The notes beneath the pieces were generated by a model that was given only the letters and a program-made list of their open reading frames with translations, did not search any database and was not told where the DNA came from. 50,597 bases of DNA from Shigella phage S2_02, in sequence record OQ223306. One strand, written 5' to 3'. Each line of letters opens with the position of its first letter. Position 1 is the first letter of the stretch. A program made the translations under genes and the position numbers. Shown here piece by piece: positions 4,148 through 50,597 of this stretch.

Positions 4148-4431
4148 GCAAAACTCATAAGTTAAAAATTGCCCCGATACATTTCATTGGTGTAATGAAC
4201 GGAGCCAAAACGGCAGAGTTCCGCATCAATGACCGCAACTTCCAGGTTGGTGATATCCTTGAGCTACGCGAGTTCGATCGTGACGAGTTTACCGGGTGGG
4301 AAGTTCACGCCAGGGTGTCCGATGTTACAGACGTGACGCCATACATCAATCGCGGTTATGACGAGCAAGAATGCGACTTCACGCAATACGTGATGTTATC
4401 AATCAAGCCTTACAGGAAGGTTAGACCATGA
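4144..4431 (+). CDS. putative ASCH/PUA-like (DUF3850-like) domain protein (95 aa)
   Basis: ORF track; N-terminal pattern KLKIAPIHF...GAKTAEFRINDRNFQVGDILELRE recalls ASCH-type small phage proteins (from memory, unverified). Confidence 0.4.
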   Translation: MSKTHKLKIAPIHFIGVMNGAKTAEFRINDRNFQVGDILELREFDRDEFTGWEVHARVSDVTDVTPYINRGYDEQECDFTQYVMLSIKPYRKVRP

Positions 4432-5066
4432 AATTTGAGTGCGTATCAAGTAGCGGATCTGGTTTTAAGTGGGGAAAAACTTACAAAGGTGTTCGCGTAA
4501 ATGATGACAGCTTCATCATTACTGATGAGAACGATTGCAACGTGAACGTTGTACGGCGTCACGAATATCAGGAAATTTTCCTGCCTTATGGCGGTAGCTC
4601 AAAATATATCTTCCATCGAATCGTGGATGGTGTTAAATTTAAAGACGTAATCGAAGCAATCAACCAACTGCATAATAAAGAGGTCAAATTTATGAAATTC
4701 GAATGTATCAGTGATAACACCAAAAAATTTACCGTTGGCAAAATCTACGACGTGCCTACTGAGCACGCAAAGCACACTGTAGCACTGACCGACGACACGG
4801 GTCGCCACCGCATTGCAACCGTAACGCACAACTGTGAAGGTCTTCGCTGGAATAGCGGCGGAACTAAGTTCGCAACGTTCGGCAAGAAGCGCAAGCGTAC
4901 TTTCTGCGTTAATGGAAAGGTTACAGCGAACAAGATCCACAACGTCAAGCCGTCAGAAGTTGACCGTAAGCCAGCGACGAAGTTTGAAGAAAAGGCAGAT
5001 TTGTCTGGTCTGGCTATCGCTCTTGTTCTCCTGGTTGCTTCGATTTCGCTGCTATTCATCATGTAA
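4428..5066 (+). CDS. membrane-anchored protein with internally duplicated N-terminal domain (212 aa)
   Basis: ORF track; two segments each starting MKFEC(V/I)S; C-terminal hydrophobic helix LSGLAIALVLLVASISLLFIM. Confidence 0.6.
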   Translation: MKFECVSSSGSGFKWGKTYKGVRVNDDSFIITDENDCNVNVVRRHEYQEIFLPYGGSSKYIFHRIVDGVKFKDVIEAINQLHNKEVKFMKFECISDNTKKFTVGKIYDVPTEHAKHTVALTDDTGRHRIATVTHNCEGLRWNSGGTKFATFGKKRKRTFCVNGKVTANKIHNVKPSEVDRKPATKFEEKADLSGLAIALVLLVASISLLFIM

Positions 5067-5214: not shown

Positions 5215-5433
5215 ATGGCTACTATCATGACAGCAGAAGATGCAGCACGCGAAGCAGTGGAAGGAATGCGCCCAAATAGCTCCAGAATCGCCCACTACTA
5301 CAAATTTGAGGTGTCGGCAGTGCAATTGGTCCATGAAATTTTAAGGCTCCCACAAGTCGATTCAGCGCGCGTGGTGACGTGCTTAAAAAATTATTTTTGC
5401 ATCACTATTAAAACGAATAGCACGAATTGCTAA
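5215..5433 (+). CDS. hypothetical protein (72 aa)
   Basis: ORF track; weak SD; C-terminus NSTNC and stop are encoded by box 5416-5436; an alternative 36-codon hydrophobic ORF 5120-5230 has a better SD. Confidence 0.4.
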   Translation: MATIMTAEDAAREAVEGMRPNSSRIAHYYKFEVSAVQLVHEILRLPQVDSARVVTCLKNYFCITIKTNSTNC

Positions 5434-5460
5434 AACTTGCTCAAGGGCATTTGTTAGAAT
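5416..5460 (+). promoter_or_regulatory. Early promoter module: box AATAGCACGAATTGCTAAAAC + 18 bp + TGtTAGAAT
   Basis: -10-like TAGAAT 5455-5460 in hairpin AAGGGCAT/ATGCCCTT; gene at 5501. Confidence 0.5.
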
Positions 5461-5500
5461 GCCCTTCGTTGAGTTAAGCAACTAATCAGAGGAATAAATC

Positions 5501-6715: not shown

Positions 6716-6755
6716 CACGAATTGCTAAAACGTCGATGGGGTGATTTGATATAGT
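6711..6755 (+). promoter_or_regulatory. Early promoter module: box AATAGCACGAATTGCTAAAAC + 18 bp + TATAGT
   Basis: TATAGT 6750-6755; flanking 9-bp stem CGATGGGGT/ACCTCATCG has one G-T (G.U) pair; gene at 6788. Confidence 0.5.
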
Positions 6756-6787
6756 TACCTCATCGACAACGAAGAGAGAAAATCGAA

Positions 6788-15775: not shown

Positions 15776-15803
15776 TTGACGCTTTAACAAAAAGTGCTAT
15801 TAT
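15776..15803 (+). promoter_or_regulatory. Putative sigma70-type promoter for major capsid gene (TTGACG-16-TATTAT) with box copy in the spacer
   Basis: TTGACG 15776-15781, TATTAT 15798-15803; reverse-orientation box 15781-15801 fills the spacer. Confidence 0.45.
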
Positions 15804-19510: not shown

Positions 19511-19565
19511 CTGTAAAATCATCCTATCAACTTTATTCAATTAACTTTTAACAAAAAGTGCTATC
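19491..19565 (+). promoter_or_regulatory. Putative promoter for tail chaperone (TTGCGC-17-TAAAAT) with box copy in 5' UTR
   Basis: -35 TTGCGC 19491-19496 inside hairpin, -10 TAAAAT 19514-19519, reverse-orientation box 19545-19565 just before SD. Confidence 0.4.
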
Positions 19566-35121: not shown

Positions 35122-35174
35122 AATAGCACGAATTGCTAAGCACAGATTTTATCATTGTGCCACCTGCCTTGCAA
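35122..35174 (-). promoter_or_regulatory. Putative sigma70 promoter for tail-fibre gene (TTGCAA-17-TAAAAT, minus strand) with box copy at the start site
   Basis: Minus-strand -35 at 35169-35174, -10 at 35146-35151; box AATAGCACGAATTGCTAAG 35122-35140 between start site and SD AAGGAG. Confidence 0.45.
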
Positions 35175-36150: not shown

Positions 36151-36217
36151 AAAATAAAAAACGCGTAGAAGGATGTTAACCCGCTACGCGTCGTTTGTTT
36201 TAACTAAAAATGCTATT
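36151..36217 (-). promoter_or_regulatory. Minus-strand module: box + 18 bp + TAACAT overlapping hairpin/T-run terminator, upstream of primase
   Basis: Box (revcomp AATAGCATTTTTAGTTAAAAC) 36197-36217 contains stop of upstream gene; -10-like at 36173-36178; hairpin ACGCGTAG/CTACGCGT 36161-36191 then U-run. Confidence 0.45.
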
Positions 36218-36652
36218 GGTCGTTCCGATATCTTCCTTCTTCACGACGCGCATAAATTTCTTGTTCTTGCATCTCTTCTCTAGGCACTTGCCGTTACCGT
36301 CAAACTTGAGGTCGAATCGCAACCATGCGGCGCGGAATCCTTTACAACCCTGACGACGGTAAGCACGATGTGCAGCTTCAGCACCTTGCCACGAAATCAT
36401 GTTGCGCTCCTTCCATCCCTGCACGGTCTGATTGCTAACTTTCAGAGCCTTTGCGCAAGCCGCCGGACCACCATAATATTCAATAAGAGCATCCAATCGC
36501 GCTCTCAGTCCTGCGCGCGTTTCTTCTTTATGGATATAAAATCCGCAGCGCTGGCGAGGCTTTTTATCTTTACCGCGTCGTGTTCCGTTGTTACCATTGA
36601 TGTGACGTTTATCGATTTCACCAGTAGACTCTGCGATACGTTTCATATTCAT
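36200..36652 (-). CDS. putative helix-turn-helix DNA-binding protein (150 aa); candidate regulator
   Basis: ORF-track frame 36200..36724; ATG 36652 has SD AGGAG; basic N-terminus and HTH-like segment PAACAKALKVSNQTVQGWKER; function unverified. Confidence 0.5.
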   Translation of the reverse strand: MNMKRIAESTGEIDKRHINGNNGTRRGKDKKPRQRCGFYIHKEETRAGLRARLDALIEYYGGPAACAKALKVSNQTVQGWKERNMISWQGAEAAHRAYRRQGCKGFRAAWLRFDLKFDGNGKCLEKRCKNKKFMRVVKKEDIGTTNSIFS

Positions 36653-36663
36653 CTTAATTCTCC

Positions 36664-36732
36664 TGTAGCACTTTTTGCTAAAAACGTTTACTGTATGCCG
36701 TGTATTATATCGTAAACGATACAACGATTCAA
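36664..36732. promoter_or_regulatory. Overlapping divergent promoters: box + 18 bp + TATTAT (plus, helicase) and TTGAAT-17-TATAAT (minus, HTH gene)
   Basis: Box 36664-36684; plus -10 at 36703-36708; minus -35 at 36727-36732 and -10 at 36704-36709; box lies in 5' UTR of the minus transcript. Confidence 0.45.
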
Positions 36733-36746
36733 AGGATTAAATAGCC

Positions 36747-38765
36747 GTGACAATTAACATCAAAAAGCAAATCGCATTACTTGGCGAGGACTATATAAAA
36801 CGCACTCAAGAACGATTCACTGTCGGTGAGGTCGTTCCTTATCCGTATCAGGTTGTTGCTTATGCCGAGATCGCAAAACGCCTTTCAAATTACGAGCATC
36901 CATTCTTTGTTAAAGCGTCAGTATCTGCTGGTAAAACAATCATATTCGCTATGGTGGCAAAGCAGTGTCAAAAAATGGGATTGAAAATGCTTGTGCTTGC
37001 GAGGCAGGGTGAGATTGTCGATCAGGATAGTGAGGAGATCGATAACTTCGGGGTAACGAACTCCATCTTCTCAGCGTCGCTTGGAATCAAGTCCTGCTAC
37101 TTCCCGATCGTGGTTGGCTCTGAGGGTACTGTTGCAAATGGCCTAAACAATGAGTTGGCTGATTTTGTCCCGCATGTAATTGGGATCGACGAATGTCACC
37201 AGGTGGATTGGGAAGACCTTGCTCAAGCCATTGAAGGAAAGGAAACGATGGAGCAGATGAAGGGGGAGAAAGGGAAAGTTATTATGGACGGGGAGATTCC
37301 TCTGATTGGTAATGATGGGAAACCTTTACTTGGAACTAAGCGAAGCCAGTACACTATCGTAATCATGGAGATGATGCGTCGCTGTAAAGAGATTCACGGG
37401 CATGACCTCAGAATATTTGGCATGACAGGATCTGAATTTAGGGGCGTTGTTCCGATTCTGGTGGAGAATACAAAGGCGTTAGGATTCTGGCGTGAGCGCG
37501 TAACTGATATCGATACAAACTATCTGATTGAGTTCGGCTCTGTTGTGCCGACGATATTCGGTTCAACTGACGGAGTACACTACGATCTGGATAAGTTCAA
37601 GGCGTCAAGCGAGGACGGCGTACAGGACTTTACAGAGAAAGATATGAAGGCTATGGAAGATGAGATCCTTCATGATAAATCCCTGACTCAGCGAATCATG
37701 CAAATGGTCGCCAAAAAGGCAGAAGAACGCAATGCGGTCCTGATTACATGTGCCGGGGTGCGTCACTGTAAAGAGGCGGCGGCGGCACTTCCACCTGGAA
37801 GTACCTATGCAATTATCACTGGCGAAACAGACACCAAAACGCGCAAGAAGATTCTTGATGATGTGAGGGCCGGGAAAATTAAATACACCTTTCAGGTAAT
37901 GGCGCTCACTACTGGCGTTAACGTTCCAAATTGGGATTTCAGTGTCATACTCCGCAAGATAGGGTCGCTCACACTGTTGATTCAACTTTTGGGTAGGGGT
38001 ATGCGTCTGCTTAAACCCTGGCAGGTTGCTGAGGGAATGGTTAAGCAGGACCATCTGGTATGGGATTTCGCAGGTACGATGGATGAATTGGGTCAGCTTT
38101 ATTTCGATCCGATACTTGAGCAGGCACAATTCCAAAAGCGTTTTGAAAACGGCAAAGATCCGAAAACATGTCCGAAATGCGGTTGCGTAAATAGCTTCTA
38201 TGCTCGACGATGCGTTAACGTTATCGACGGCGAGCGCTGCGATCACTTCTGGACTTCTCAGATTTGCGAGGACCAGGTTGATGAACGTACCGGGAAAATT
38301 CTTGTTAAAGGGTGTGGTGCTGAGAATGACGTTGTGGCACGAGTCTGTCGTTGCTGTGATGTTTCTCTCGTCGATCCGAACCTGAAGTTGTCCGGTAAGG
38401 CGTACACTAAGAATGACTGGTACGAGGTCAAGAATTTTGAGGTTACGCTAACCAAAAACCAAAAGGGCGTGATATACAAATATACGCTGATTAATGATGA
38501 CGGCGATGAGTTCAAGGCGTATGAAAAATTCTTCCCTGAGTCCGACTCTAAGATTTGCGGTACGCTATGGAAAACGAAAGGTGTATTACCTCATGTGTCA
38601 GATCCTAAAATGCGTCGCTACTTTATTGGAATGAAGAACGCTATCAAGATCGTGCAATACTCGCATCATATAGCGCATCCGGTGCGCGTAACTCATCGCC
38701 GCAACCAGAAGAAAGAAGATATTATCTCACGCAAAGACTTCGGTATGGAGGATATCCCGGAATGA
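36747..38765 (+). CDS. superfamily-2 DNA helicase (DEAH-type) with C-terminal zinc-finger region (672 aa)
   Basis: ORF track (GTG start); Walker A SAGKT and motif II DECH; C-terminal Cys clusters. Confidence 0.8.
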   Translation: MTINIKKQIALLGEDYIKRTQERFTVGEVVPYPYQVVAYAEIAKRLSNYEHPFFVKASVSAGKTIIFAMVAKQCQKMGLKMLVLARQGEIVDQDSEEIDNFGVTNSIFSASLGIKSCYFPIVVGSEGTVANGLNNELADFVPHVIGIDECHQVDWEDLAQAIEGKETMEQMKGEKGKVIMDGEIPLIGNDGKPLLGTKRSQYTIVIMEMMRRCKEIHGHDLRIFGMTGSEFRGVVPILVENTKALGFWRERVTDIDTNYLIEFGSVVPTIFGSTDGVHYDLDKFKASSEDGVQDFTEKDMKAMEDEILHDKSLTQRIMQMVAKKAEERNAVLITCAGVRHCKEAAAALPPGSTYAIITGETDTKTRKKILDDVRAGKIKYTFQVMALTTGVNVPNWDFSVILRKIGSLTLLIQLLGRGMRLLKPWQVAEGMVKQDHLVWDFAGTMDELGQLYFDPILEQAQFQKRFENGKDPKTCPKCGCVNSFYARRCVNVIDGERCDHFWTSQICEDQVDERTGKILVKGCGAENDVVARVCRCCDVSLVDPNLKLSGKAYTKNDWYEVKNFEVTLTKNQKGVIYKYTLINDDGDEFKAYEKFFPESDSKICGTLWKTKGVLPHVSDPKMRRYFIGMKNAIKIVQYSHHIAHPVRVTHRRNQKKEDIISRKDFGMEDIPE

Positions 38766-39241
38766 TTGAATGGTCAAAATACCTTAAGTACAACTACGGT
38801 AATCTTTACTGGCTCGTCACTAGAAATAATAGAGTTCAAGCTGGAACGCTTGCTGGAACTATAAGTGATGAGGGTTACGTGAAAGTCATGATGCGCAAGA
38901 AGGCGTATCATGCTCATAGAATAATATGGGAGATGCACTACGGAAAAATACCCGAAGGGATGGAAGTAGACCATATAAATCACGACAGGACTGACAACAG
39001 AATAGAAAACCTTCGTCTTGTCACTAAGCAAGTTAACATGAAAAATAAATCATCATATTCAAATAACAAATCTGGCGTTACTGGAGTAAGCTGGCACTCA
39101 AAGAAAAAGAAATGGGTAGCTCAGATACAAAGCAACAAGAGGAAAAAGATGTTATATGAAGGGGATAGCTTTGATGATGCAGTGAAGGCGAGAAAGTCAG
39201 CAGAGATAGAGCTTGATTTTCATAAAAATCACGGGGTGTAA
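38762..39241 (+). CDS. HNH endonuclease with AP2-like domain (159 aa)
   Basis: ORF track; HRIIWEMHYGKIPEGMEVDHINHDRTDNRIENL HNH core; paralog of 9130 and 49475 genes. Confidence 0.8.
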   Translation: MIEWSKYLKYNYGNLYWLVTRNNRVQAGTLAGTISDEGYVKVMMRKKAYHAHRIIWEMHYGKIPEGMEVDHINHDRTDNRIENLRLVTKQVNMKNKSSYSNNKSGVTGVSWHSKKKKWVAQIQSNKRKKMLYEGDSFDDAVKARKSAEIELDFHKNHGV

Positions 39242-39729: not shown

Positions 39730-40443
39730 ATGAAAGACTTTAATGATATCTAAACCATAGACTTTGCAGATACTGGGTGCTCATTCACTCGTGAAGCAAT
39801 AGCATCAGGCGGTTATTATCAGGCATTGAAAACGCCAACCTGCAAAGAGATTTCAGGCCGTCGATACAAGGGAACCAATACACCTGACGCCGTTCGTGAT
39901 TTATGGTCAACTCCACGCGAGGTTATTGCATACCTTGAGGGGCGTTATGGGAAATATGATCTCGACGCTGCTGCAAGCGAGGAAAATAAAGTTTGCGAGA
40001 AGTTTTACTCCCAGGAAACAAACTGCTTAAAGCGTTGGTGGGGAAAGAATAAGCACGTTTGGTTAAATCCTCCTTATAGCCGACCTGATATATTCGTCAA
40101 GAAAGCGATTGAGCAAATGGAGCACAACAACCAGATCGATATGCTTTTACCTGCTGATAATTCTACAGCTTGGTTTACTGAGGCGCGACAGCACGCGGCT
40201 GAGATTATCTGGATTGAAGCGGATTTGACTGAGGATATCGACGGGAACGAGTACGCACGATCAGGTCGACTGGCGTTCATATCCGGTGAAACCGGAAAGG
40301 CCGTAGATGGTAATAACAAAGGTTCGGTAATTTTTATCATGCGCGAACTTAAAGAGGGTGAGACACAGCAAACTCACTATATCCCAATCACAAGCATTTG
40401 CCCTTCGGTGAAAAACAAGCGAGCAAAAGTGAGGAAAGTATAA
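39730..40443 (+). pseudogene. dam: dam-like gene in its full-length frame, interrupted by in-frame TAA at 39751-39753
   Basis: ATG 39730 with SD GAGAGGAA is in frame with the methyltransferase ORF but separated by TAA after 7 codons; could be nonsense mutation, sequencing error or recoding. Confidence 0.4.
39826..40443 (+). CDS. dam: DNA N6-adenine methyltransferase (phage Dam family) (205 aa from TTG start)
   Basis: ORF track; catalytic NPPYS motif and DLDAAAS region; only TTG start available downstream of the in-frame stop. Confidence 0.6.
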   Translation: MKTPTCKEISGRRYKGTNTPDAVRDLWSTPREVIAYLEGRYGKYDLDAAASEENKVCEKFYSQETNCLKRWWGKNKHVWLNPPYSRPDIFVKKAIEQMEHNNQIDMLLPADNSTAWFTEARQHAAEIIWIEADLTEDIDGNEYARSGRLAFISGETGKAVDGNNKGSVIFIMRELKEGETQQTHYIPITSICPSVKNKRAKVRKV

Positions 40444-40691: not shown

Positions 40692-40725
40692 TTGCTAAAA
40701 CTACCCGGCGAAAGTCGGGTATAGT
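40681..40725 (+). promoter_or_regulatory. Early-type promoter module: box CGCAGCACTAATTGCTAAAAC + 18 bp + TATAGT
   Basis: TATAGT 40720-40725 after hairpin ACCCG/CGGGT; CATCGA follows; box contains upstream stop TAA. Confidence 0.5.
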
Positions 40726-40757
40726 TATTTCATCGAAACGAAATGAGGAATCAGAGG

Positions 40758-40967
40758 ATGGCACGCATTAACGCAAACTTTTTCAATATCGCTCAACAGT
40801 CAGCAAAAATGGCTGTTCATATCACTGACAAGAAAGGCGGCAACTTCGATTGGGATATTGCTATGAACTTCCTTAAAATGTCTTATTACCGTTGCTCGGT
40901 TGAAGAAGTCGAAGGCCTCATCTCTGACGTGGAGAAATTAACTAATGATGATAAAAAAACAAGGTAA
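40758..40967 (+). CDS. hypothetical protein (69 aa)
   Basis: ORF-track frame 40743..40967; ATG 40758 has SD AATCAGAGG and lies downstream of predicted start. Confidence 0.5.
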   Translation: MARINANFFNIAQQSAKMAVHITDKKGGNFDWDIAMNFLKMSYYRCSVEEVEGLISDVEKLTNDDKKTR

Positions 40968-41527: not shown

Positions 41528-42679
41528 ATGTCACAAGCTAAAATCACCACCGAGCAACTTATTGAAGAGCGCATGAGCGGCCTAACACTTCGCGAAATCG
41601 CGGAAAAATACGGTATGCACATTCGCACTGTTGAAGCGCGACATGCCAAGCTGGCAAAAGAAGGTCATTTTCACGGTAACGAGCATGTTGCTAAAAACGT
41701 GCCCGAGGGATTCATGGTAAAAGGCACGTCGACGATGATTCGCGGCGATGGGACCGAGGTAGTGCGCTGGGTAAAAACCGATCAGGACCGTGAGAAGATT
41801 GCGGCAATGATGGAAGCAGCGCGTATTGCATTCTGTGAAGACCTGCCGAGAGCGAAGCCAACCGAGCTACTAACCTCGCAAGGGCTTACGACAGCGATGG
41901 GTAAGCTGGCACTCTATCCGGTATTCGATCTTCATATTGGCGCGCTTGCTCACAAGCATGAATGCGGAGAGAACTACTCTACCGACGTAGCTGAAAAAGT
42001 GCTTGGCGACTTCTTCAATTACGCGATCGATATTGCCCCGAACGCAGAGAAAGCTGTTCTGTTAATCGGCGGTGACTTCCTTCACTCGGACGGTCTTGAT
42101 GCTGTTACCCCGGCAAGCGGTCACGTTCTGGATCAGGATTCACGATATGCAAAATTGGTGCATGTGGCTATTCGATCGGTGCGTCGCGCTATCGACAAAA
42201 TGCTACTGAAGCACAAAGAAGTCGAAGTCCAGGTTATCGAAGGGAACCACGACCAGGCCGGGATGATTTGGCTACGCGCTGCAATGGCTGCATACTATGA
42301 AGACGAGCCGCGAGTATTCGTTGACGTCAGTCCTATGATTCTGCATAAGACTCGCTGGGGAAATACCTTACTGGGATACACTCACGGTCACACGATGAAA
42401 AAGGCAGACACGCGACTTGCAGCGATGGCGGCAGACTTCCGCGCAGACTTTGGAGAAAGCAAATACGTGTATACTCACAGTGGGCACTGGCATCATCAGA
42501 CAATCACTGAACACTCACTCGGTATTGATGAAGTTCACGGTCAGCTTGGGGCGAAAGACGCATATGCGGCGCGCGGCGGGTGGCGCTCATATCGCCAGGC
42601 GGCGGTAATCATTTACGATAAGCAGTTTGGTGAAATCGGTCGATTCATCTATCGTCCAGAAATGACAGGATCGCACTAA
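41528..42679 (+). CDS. calcineurin-like metallophosphoesterase with N-terminal HTH-like domain (383 aa)
   Basis: ORF track; motifs DLHIG, GGDFLHSDG, GNHD, GHTM, HSGHWHH; N-terminal LTLREIAEKYGMHIRTV HTH-like segment. Confidence 0.65.
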   Translation: MSQAKITTEQLIEERMSGLTLREIAEKYGMHIRTVEARHAKLAKEGHFHGNEHVAKNVPEGFMVKGTSTMIRGDGTEVVRWVKTDQDREKIAAMMEAARIAFCEDLPRAKPTELLTSQGLTTAMGKLALYPVFDLHIGALAHKHECGENYSTDVAEKVLGDFFNYAIDIAPNAEKAVLLIGGDFLHSDGLDAVTPASGHVLDQDSRYAKLVHVAIRSVRRAIDKMLLKHKEVEVQVIEGNHDQAGMIWLRAAMAAYYEDEPRVFVDVSPMILHKTRWGNTLLGYTHGHTMKKADTRLAAMAADFRADFGESKYVYTHSGHWHHQTITEHSLGIDEVHGQLGAKDAYAARGGWRSYRQAAVIIYDKQFGEIGRFIYRPEMTGSH

Positions 42680-50470: not shown

Positions 50471-50597
50471 GGGGGGGGAATTGGTGTTACCCAGTTCACC
50501 TGGTAGTCATCTCCATTTTTAGCAAAAAGTGCTATCCATTACGATTACGCTTGATTGTGTGTTAATCCATGTATATGATTTGCCTAAATCGCAATCG
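50471..50597. repeat. Terminal direct repeat copy 2 (identical to 1-127)
   Basis: Exact match to window start; repeat may continue beyond window end. Confidence 0.9.

Follow-up and report, generated by a model that had tools for sequence, protein, structure and literature searches.

A marbox-type box between pir and the helicase gene of Shigella phage S2_02 is probably read by a host activator and not by the Cro-like regulator Pir

The intergenic region between pir and a divergently transcribed ATP-dependent helicase gene in Shigella phage S2_02 (sequence record OQ223306; the whole stretch of 50,597 nucleotides is referred to as the window, and all positions are counted in it) contains a directional 20-nt box that recurs in front of non-structural phage genes. 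An initial annotation, made from the letters alone, had named the product of the 150-residue open reading frame (ORF) next to the box as the most obvious candidate for the box-binding factor. Here we report that this ORF is, judged by sequence, the already known regulator Pir of phage T1, that Pir probably does not read the box, and that the box conforms to the binding consensus of the host activators MarA, SoxS and Rob, one of which probably occupies it. The features at the locus are:

36200–36652, minus strand: pir, predicted 150-residue Cro-fold helix-turn-helix (HTH) regulator, ortholog of T1 Orf23/Pir; ATG at 36652
36660–36664, minus strand: Shine-Dalgarno AGGAG of pir, read from the sequence, 7 nt 5' of the ATG and abutting the box
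36665–36684, plus strand: the box, a 20-nt marbox-like element GTAGCACTTTTTGCTAAAAA with a 15-mer core at 36668–36682; points to the helicase gene; within the predicted pir leader its orientation is reversed
36704–36732, minus strand: pir sigma-70 promoter; -35 TTGAAT (36732..36727), 17-nt spacer, -10 TATAAT (36709..36704); 10 of 12 consensus matches
36703–36708, plus strand: -10 hexamer TATTAT of the helicase promoter, beginning 20 nt after the box; without a -35 hexamer
36685–36691 and 36712–36718, plus strand: inverted repeat CGTTTAC/GTAAACG flanking both overlapping -10 hexamers; dG -9.3, z -2.0
36747–38765, plus strand: divergent ATP-dependent helicase gene, GTG start
36153–36191, minus strand: intrinsic terminator after pir; stem 36161–36191, then a minus-strand T-run; dG -17.3, z -4.3
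36213..36199, minus strand: second box-like site GCATTTTTAGTTAAA, which overlaps the stop codon of pir; a -10-like TAACAT (36178..36173) follows 20 nt on

The ORF at 36200–36652 is identical to T1 ST23 (Orf23/Pir) at 146 of 150 positions (97%, full length) and occupies the same place, between primase and helicase and divergent from the helicase, with a terminator that is annotated likewise in T1. Both the cloning primers for T1 pir and the CRISPRi guide of the study that named Orf23 Pir (Laganenka et al. 2019; PMC6737242) map onto the gene, and PHROG 2856 ('transcriptional regulator') matches it at 2e-76. Pfam returned P22_Cro (PF14549; 4.5e-5, residues 54–83) at 23.6 bits, below the gathering cut-off of 30.2, and YdaS (PF15943; 8.7e-4, residues 54–83) at 19.5 bits, below the cut-off of 30; both domains are listed as precomputed matches for some Pir homologs. 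An AlphaFold2 (AF2) model computed from an alignment of 20 homologs reached a mean confidence (pLDDT) of 81, exceeding 90 at residues 35–140, with helices at residues 43–60, 63–70, 74–83 and 88–100, and its best Foldseek matches were the Cro proteins 3bd1, 6on0 and 2hin (probability 0.99–1.0, TM-score normalised to the target, TMt, about 0.7). The core of Pir is thus predicted to be an all-alpha Cro fold with an HTH. The initial annotation was right in describing an HTH-like protein divergent from the helicase, and the structure prediction and homology search that it had suggested as a check on the fold led to a DNA-binding one.

The minus-strand TTGAAT-17-TATAAT promoter proposed for this gene is present as well and is conserved among relatives. 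Its -10 hexamer and that of the helicase promoter overlap by 5 bp on opposite strands, and the starts predicted from the -10 positions, about 36697 on the minus strand for pir and near 36715 on the plus strand for the helicase, lie some 18 nt apart. The box was also said to fall in the pir 5' untranslated region: its position between the -10 (and the predicted start) and the Shine-Dalgarno sequence bears this out, and its status as part of the leader holds provided that transcription of pir begins where the -10 predicts. The inverted repeat around the -10 hexamers appears to be generic and not Pir-specific, since like hairpins occur at most box promoters. The second box-like site, whose TAACAT falls inside the loop of the pir terminator and whose position is conserved in KP36, is likely the primase promoter (36173..36213, minus strand).

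The box belongs to a large family. Allowing up to three mismatches, the 15-mer TAGCACTTTTTGCTA has 25 matches in the window versus 1.9 expected. The site bound by MarA, SoxS and Rob, 5'-GCAHWWWWTGYYAAA-3', is directional and is contacted by a monomer; at class II promoters it stands in forward orientation and overlaps the -35 (PMC6900184). The box core GCACTTTTTGCTAAA (36668–36682) fits this consensus without a mismatch, as does GCACTTTTTGTTAAA, and the GAATT subtype of the box is off by one base. Across the window there are 9 perfect and 22 one-mismatch marbox sites (0.0 and 1.7 expected from Markov shuffles). At 17 of the 22 sites a -10 hexamer, mostly TATAGT, begins exactly 20 nt past the AAA, and AAAACn stands at the -35 position. 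The micF promoter of MG1655 has the same layout (GCACTGAATGTCAAA, 20 nt, TAGAAT, and an RNA start annotated 8 nt further on, which places the centre of the site at -41.5), its spacing being identical to that at the helicase promoter, and the mar marbox ATGCCACGTTTTGCTAAATC has 16 of 20 bases in common with the phage consensus. Of the other class II promoters compared, inaA and nfo had no clear marbox in the stretches examined and fumC had only a three-mismatch site, so the comparison of geometry rests on micF.

The same box with the same spacing is found in T1, KP36, AKS96 and Motto. Over five phages from four genera or subfamilies the consensus naATAGCACnnnTTGyTAAAac is unchanged, with 15–22 sites each (about 1.3–2.5 expected) and the same distance to the -10. 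Forward boxes serve non-structural genes (1.4–8.5 kb, 32–43 kb and 46–50 kb), and the structural block has reversed copies only. A search by tblastn of four phage genomes found no phage-encoded MarA/AraC-like ORF. The element has been seen before: the 2024 reannotation of TLS described a 21-nt direct repeat, aaATAGCACnnnTTGnTAAAA, at 21 places, oriented with transcription, at a distance of about 76 nt from the start codons that follow, with ATAGCAC and TAAAA as its best conserved parts, and found also in T1, Rtp and Rogue1, for which the authors offered a role as stoperator, enhancer site or UP element (PMC11447400).

For the functional side we relied on green fluorescent protein reporters that Laganenka et al. 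assayed in phage-free Escherichia coli (PMC6737242), and the regulatory effects ascribed here to Pir of the window are those measured with the T1 protein. T1 Pir is an activator of the hol and dam promoters and a repressor of its own promoter and that of recE. The pir promoter is also repressed by T1 Orf65, which activates its own promoter, and by cAMP-CRP, which represses dam and recE as well; the dam promoter is active in a cell-free E. coli extract without phage proteins (PMC6737242). Because the ORF of the window is 97% identical to T1 Pir, whose negative autoregulation was measured, the autoregulation suggested in the initial annotation is supported. We located the five T1 reporter fragments on the T1 genome via the published primers and compared their box content with the reported response to Pir:

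T1 Pdam: perfect box; activated by Pir
T1 Ppir: reversed box; repressed by Pir
T1 Phol: no box with up to 3 mismatches allowed; activated by Pir
T1 PrecE: no box with up to 3 mismatches allowed; repressed by Pir
T1 Porf65: minimal 101-bp fragment that begins 10 bp before its box; reported to be Pir-independent

As Porf65 carries a box and is Pir-independent whereas Phol and PrecE lack one and respond, the response to Pir does not follow the box.

The conservation of the locus points in the same direction. We compared 80 pir loci from IMG/VR, all at least 51% identical, with 61 distinct intergenic sequences among them. Residues 73–84 of Pir, which include the predicted recognition helix (AF2 helix 74–83), occur in 20 variants over these 80 loci (among them SNQTVQGWKERN, NLKTVWGWKERG, TPQAVEEWFKRG and SIQVVQQWIKRG), and the leader box is present in all 80, always as ATAGCA(C/T)TTTTTG(C/T)TAAA. 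No covariation between helix and box was seen: 20 variants of helix 3 face one invariant leader box.

Nor did a motif common to the four Pir-responsive T1 fragments yield a convincing operator. CGTAAA/TTTACG is found in all four and is absent from Porf65, and shared 6-mers showed no significant enrichment in these fragments (3 versus 0.55 expected, with a shuffle maximum of 3); neither GTAAACG nor TTTACG is enriched genome-wide. TTTACG/GTAAACG was dropped as a Pir operator on these statistics, the GTAAACG arm being a variant of the generic leader CATCG(A)AACGA, and inspection by eye of the 61 distinct intergenic sequences found no operator specific to any one group of Pir proteins. The Pir operator is probably not the box. 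The leader itself is conserved after the -10 of box promoters and is followed by the ribosome-binding region AATCAGAGG (for example at 1448–1470 and 40732–40760); the sigma-70 recE promoter (31021) and the helicase leader have the variant ATCGTAAACGA. CRP sites showed no genome-wide enrichment, and a weak CRP-like site, TGCGATACGTTTCATA (36632–36647, two mismatches), covers the first codons of pir, within the fragment that CRP represses in T1. Rfam and tRNA scans found nothing.

Several observations weigh against a host reader of the box, and some of them would fit a model in which Pir itself binds it, with TAGCA-N5-TGCTA as the dyad of an HTH dimer, as class II activator of about 20 promoters and as autorepressor at the leader box. 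Pir is a proven regulator with a Cro-type HTH fold that, in T1, activates the box-containing Pdam and represses its own box-containing promoter; its good sigma-70 promoter would allow it to be made first, and the 5-bp inverted arms of the box lie one helical turn apart. Conservation within Pir peaks outside the HTH, in a basic, disordered stretch at the N-terminus (residues 5–33), and this invariant N-terminus could in principle read an invariant site. The leader box of all 80 loci and the box at Pdam are, moreover, of the TTTTT subtype, and that of Porf65, which is Pir-independent, is of the GAATT subtype, so that binding of Pir to one subtype is still conceivable. The dyad, on the other hand, is already contained in the marbox consensus (GCA...TGY) and is no argument for a dimer. 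The box also has a direction, its flanks (ATA...AAAAC) being asymmetric and conserved. Variation in the recognition helix affects the positions likely to contact bases while the box is constant, the helicase promoter alone accounts for a conserved leader box, and a direct reading of the box by Pir has to contend with the Pir independence of the minimal 101-bp Porf65 and the response of the box-less Phol and PrecE. We consider it unlikely that Pir reads the box, and on this point, taking the T1 reporters, the missing helix-box covariation and the match to the marbox and to micF geometry together, the initial annotation was not borne out.

Another phage protein is a very improbable reader. The alternative raised initially, the N-terminal domain of the metallophosphoesterase (41528–42679), is indeed HTH-like: five phages share a fairly conserved helix, xIRxVExR, better conserved than that of Pir, and the domain gives weak Pfam matches to Sigma70_r4_2 and HTH_23, albeit at E = 0.02–0.08, below cut-off. 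Its N-terminus (41528–41650) resembles sigma-70 region 4.2 (TLREIAEKYGMHIRTVEARHAKLAK). What speaks against any phage-encoded reader is that the box promoters, minimal ones included, are active in cells free of phage as well as in cell extract. Orf65 activates its minimal box promoter and represses Ppir in T1, and the box is the only obvious element common to the two fragments, but it has no recognisable DNA-binding domain and no homolog in the window, KP36 or AKS96, all of which have full sets of boxes; it was rejected as the box factor of S2_02, where the gene is absent. It is also improbable that no dedicated factor is involved and that RNA polymerase touches the box as an UP-like or displaced -35-like element in combination with an extended -10. 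The TLS authors raised the UP element, the box contains TTGCTA/TTGTTA, TG stands at -15/-14 in 29 of 67 modules (43%) with G-14 conserved, and there is basal activity without phage proteins; modules with the extended -10 may need no activator for some basal activity, which is a further point against the host reading. Yet TTG(C/T)TA lies 22 nt from the -10, beyond the reach of sigma region 4, the best conserved positions hold G/C (GCAC), unlike the A/T-only sites of the C-terminal domain of the alpha subunit, and an exact match to a 22-bit activator consensus together with micF spacing would be a coincidence. A host reader is also challenged by two relatives that carry Pir homologs and the same boxes and are labelled as phages of Pseudomonas (Motto, ON843697.1, with 19 marbox-type sites) and Vibrio (Vc1, NC_054898.2): if the labels are correct, an enterobacterial factor is not the whole story. 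Either the host labels are doubtful, as that of Motto is because of its 45% GC content, or the reader is not restricted to enterobacteria. Finally, among the papers searched, none connects the repeats with the marbox or with Rob, MarA or SoxS.

On balance, we favour with some confidence a reading in which the box is a class II marbox-type site, probably for host MarA, SoxS or Rob, in which Pir is a separate Cro-like regulator, and in which the two promoters compete through their -10 hexamers. Rob is constitutively abundant in the host and would be the obvious candidate. Forward, overlapping the missing -35 and centred at about -41, the box would drive the divergent helicase promoter once such an activator occupies it, and about 20 box promoters would in this manner drive the non-structural genes of the phage. 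Pir, produced from its near-consensus sigma-70 promoter, could then act as a Cro-type early-to-late switch that turns down its own and the recE promoters and turns up hol and dam. Given that the pir and helicase -10 hexamers overlap on opposite strands, polymerase bound in one orientation would block binding in the other. An occupied box would draw polymerase to the helicase and disfavour pir by competition, and the bound factor, lying at about +15 to +30 of the pir transcript, might in addition act as a roadblock. The occupant of the box and the competition for polymerase are inferences.

At nearly every box promoter a hairpin extends from the spacer through the -10 to the +1 region (for example at 1416–1463, 5435–5482, 6730–6777 and 40700–40747). 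Over 67 modules in 5 phages these hairpins have a mean z of -2.7, with stem sequences that differ by site; the sense strand is more stable than the antisense strand (p = 4e-4), and 82 of 767 pairs are G.U. This suggests an RNA hairpin at which read-through transcripts are stopped or processed and inside which the next promoter begins. Reversed boxes lie just upstream of the genes for the major head protein (15783–15797, minus strand), the tape-measure chaperone (19547–19561, minus strand) and the tail fibre (35124–35138). In T1 as in the window, the one before the major head gene falls between the two hexamers of a sigma-70-like promoter, TTGACG-16-TATTAT, and two precede the start codon by about 22 nt; the reversed boxes resemble brakes more than activator sites. 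The orf65 cassette of T1 (about 520 bp, T1 4345–4879) is absent from the window, with the junction exactly within an identical box (5418–5432), such that the window resembles T1 with the cassette cut out exactly box to box. Gene cassettes seem to be swapped by recombination at boxes.

The source of the window is, on nucleotide identity, a T1-like coliphage: 4 kb around the pir locus are 91–94% identical to coliphages of this type such as Shfl1, ISF002 and LHE71. Positions 1–127 are identical to 50471–50597, which probably reflects overlapping ends left by the assembly of a circularly permuted genome; its length would then be about 50,470 bp, and the box matches at 48 and 50518 are one site. 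After the helicase gene lies an ORF for an HNH/AP2-type homing endonuclease (38762–39241) that only LHE71 carries as well, the alignments of most close relatives ending at the end of the helicase gene. The dam methyltransferase gene (39730–40443) has an in-frame TAA as codon 8 (39751–39753; GAA in T1) and its product is otherwise 98% identical to T1 Dam, so that the TAA is either a nonsense mutation or a sequencing error.

The pir gene itself is nothing new, and the value of the analysis lies in the correction concerning the reader of the box. Transcription of T1-like phages is poorly understood, and the function of the 21-nt repeat was still unexplained in 2024. For the Drexlerviridae at large we hold it to be an evenly balanced proposition that nearly all early and middle promoters depend on the host stress activators MarA, SoxS or Rob via some 20 near-consensus class II marboxes per genome, that reversed copies brake pir and a few late genes, that the sites, multiplying as phage DNA replicates, could titrate the factor and so help to time the late switch, and that Pir modulates this program in the manner of Cro, maybe touching T-tract boxes via its N-terminus. 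If true, common coliphages and Klebsiella phages, a group that includes candidates for therapy and contaminants of fermentations, would depend on the activators that control multidrug resistance.

Among known systems, T1 Pir and the ORF of the window do not differ in substance (97% identity and the same locus, promoter, box and terminator), and the T1 study left the Pir binding site undetermined, so the question of the box was not settled there (PMC6737242). With the all-alpha Cro proteins of Xfaso 1 (3bd1), N15 (6on0/2hin) and P22 (PF14549) Pir shares the core fold at residues of about 40–105 and the role of a small early repressor acting on early promoters. Unlike them, it has a conserved disordered basic N-terminus of 35 residues and a C-terminal extension of 45 residues, falls below the Pfam cut-offs and activates some promoters. 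In phage T4, MotA is a phage-encoded activator that replaces the -35 at promoters with a Mot box, which is how binding of the box by Pir would work; the lack of covariation and the T1 reporters argue against a phage-encoded reader here. The 21-nt repeat of TLS is the same element as the box, with the same rule of orientation and the same distance to start codons, and its authors drew no connection to the marbox or to Pir (PMC11447400). Host marboxes are degenerate and scattered, whereas the phage genome carries about 20 near-consensus copies that we infer to be factor-dependent; with class II MarA/SoxS/Rob promoters such as micF the box has in common the fit to the consensus, the forward orientation, the overlap with the -35 and the 20-nt spacing to the -10.

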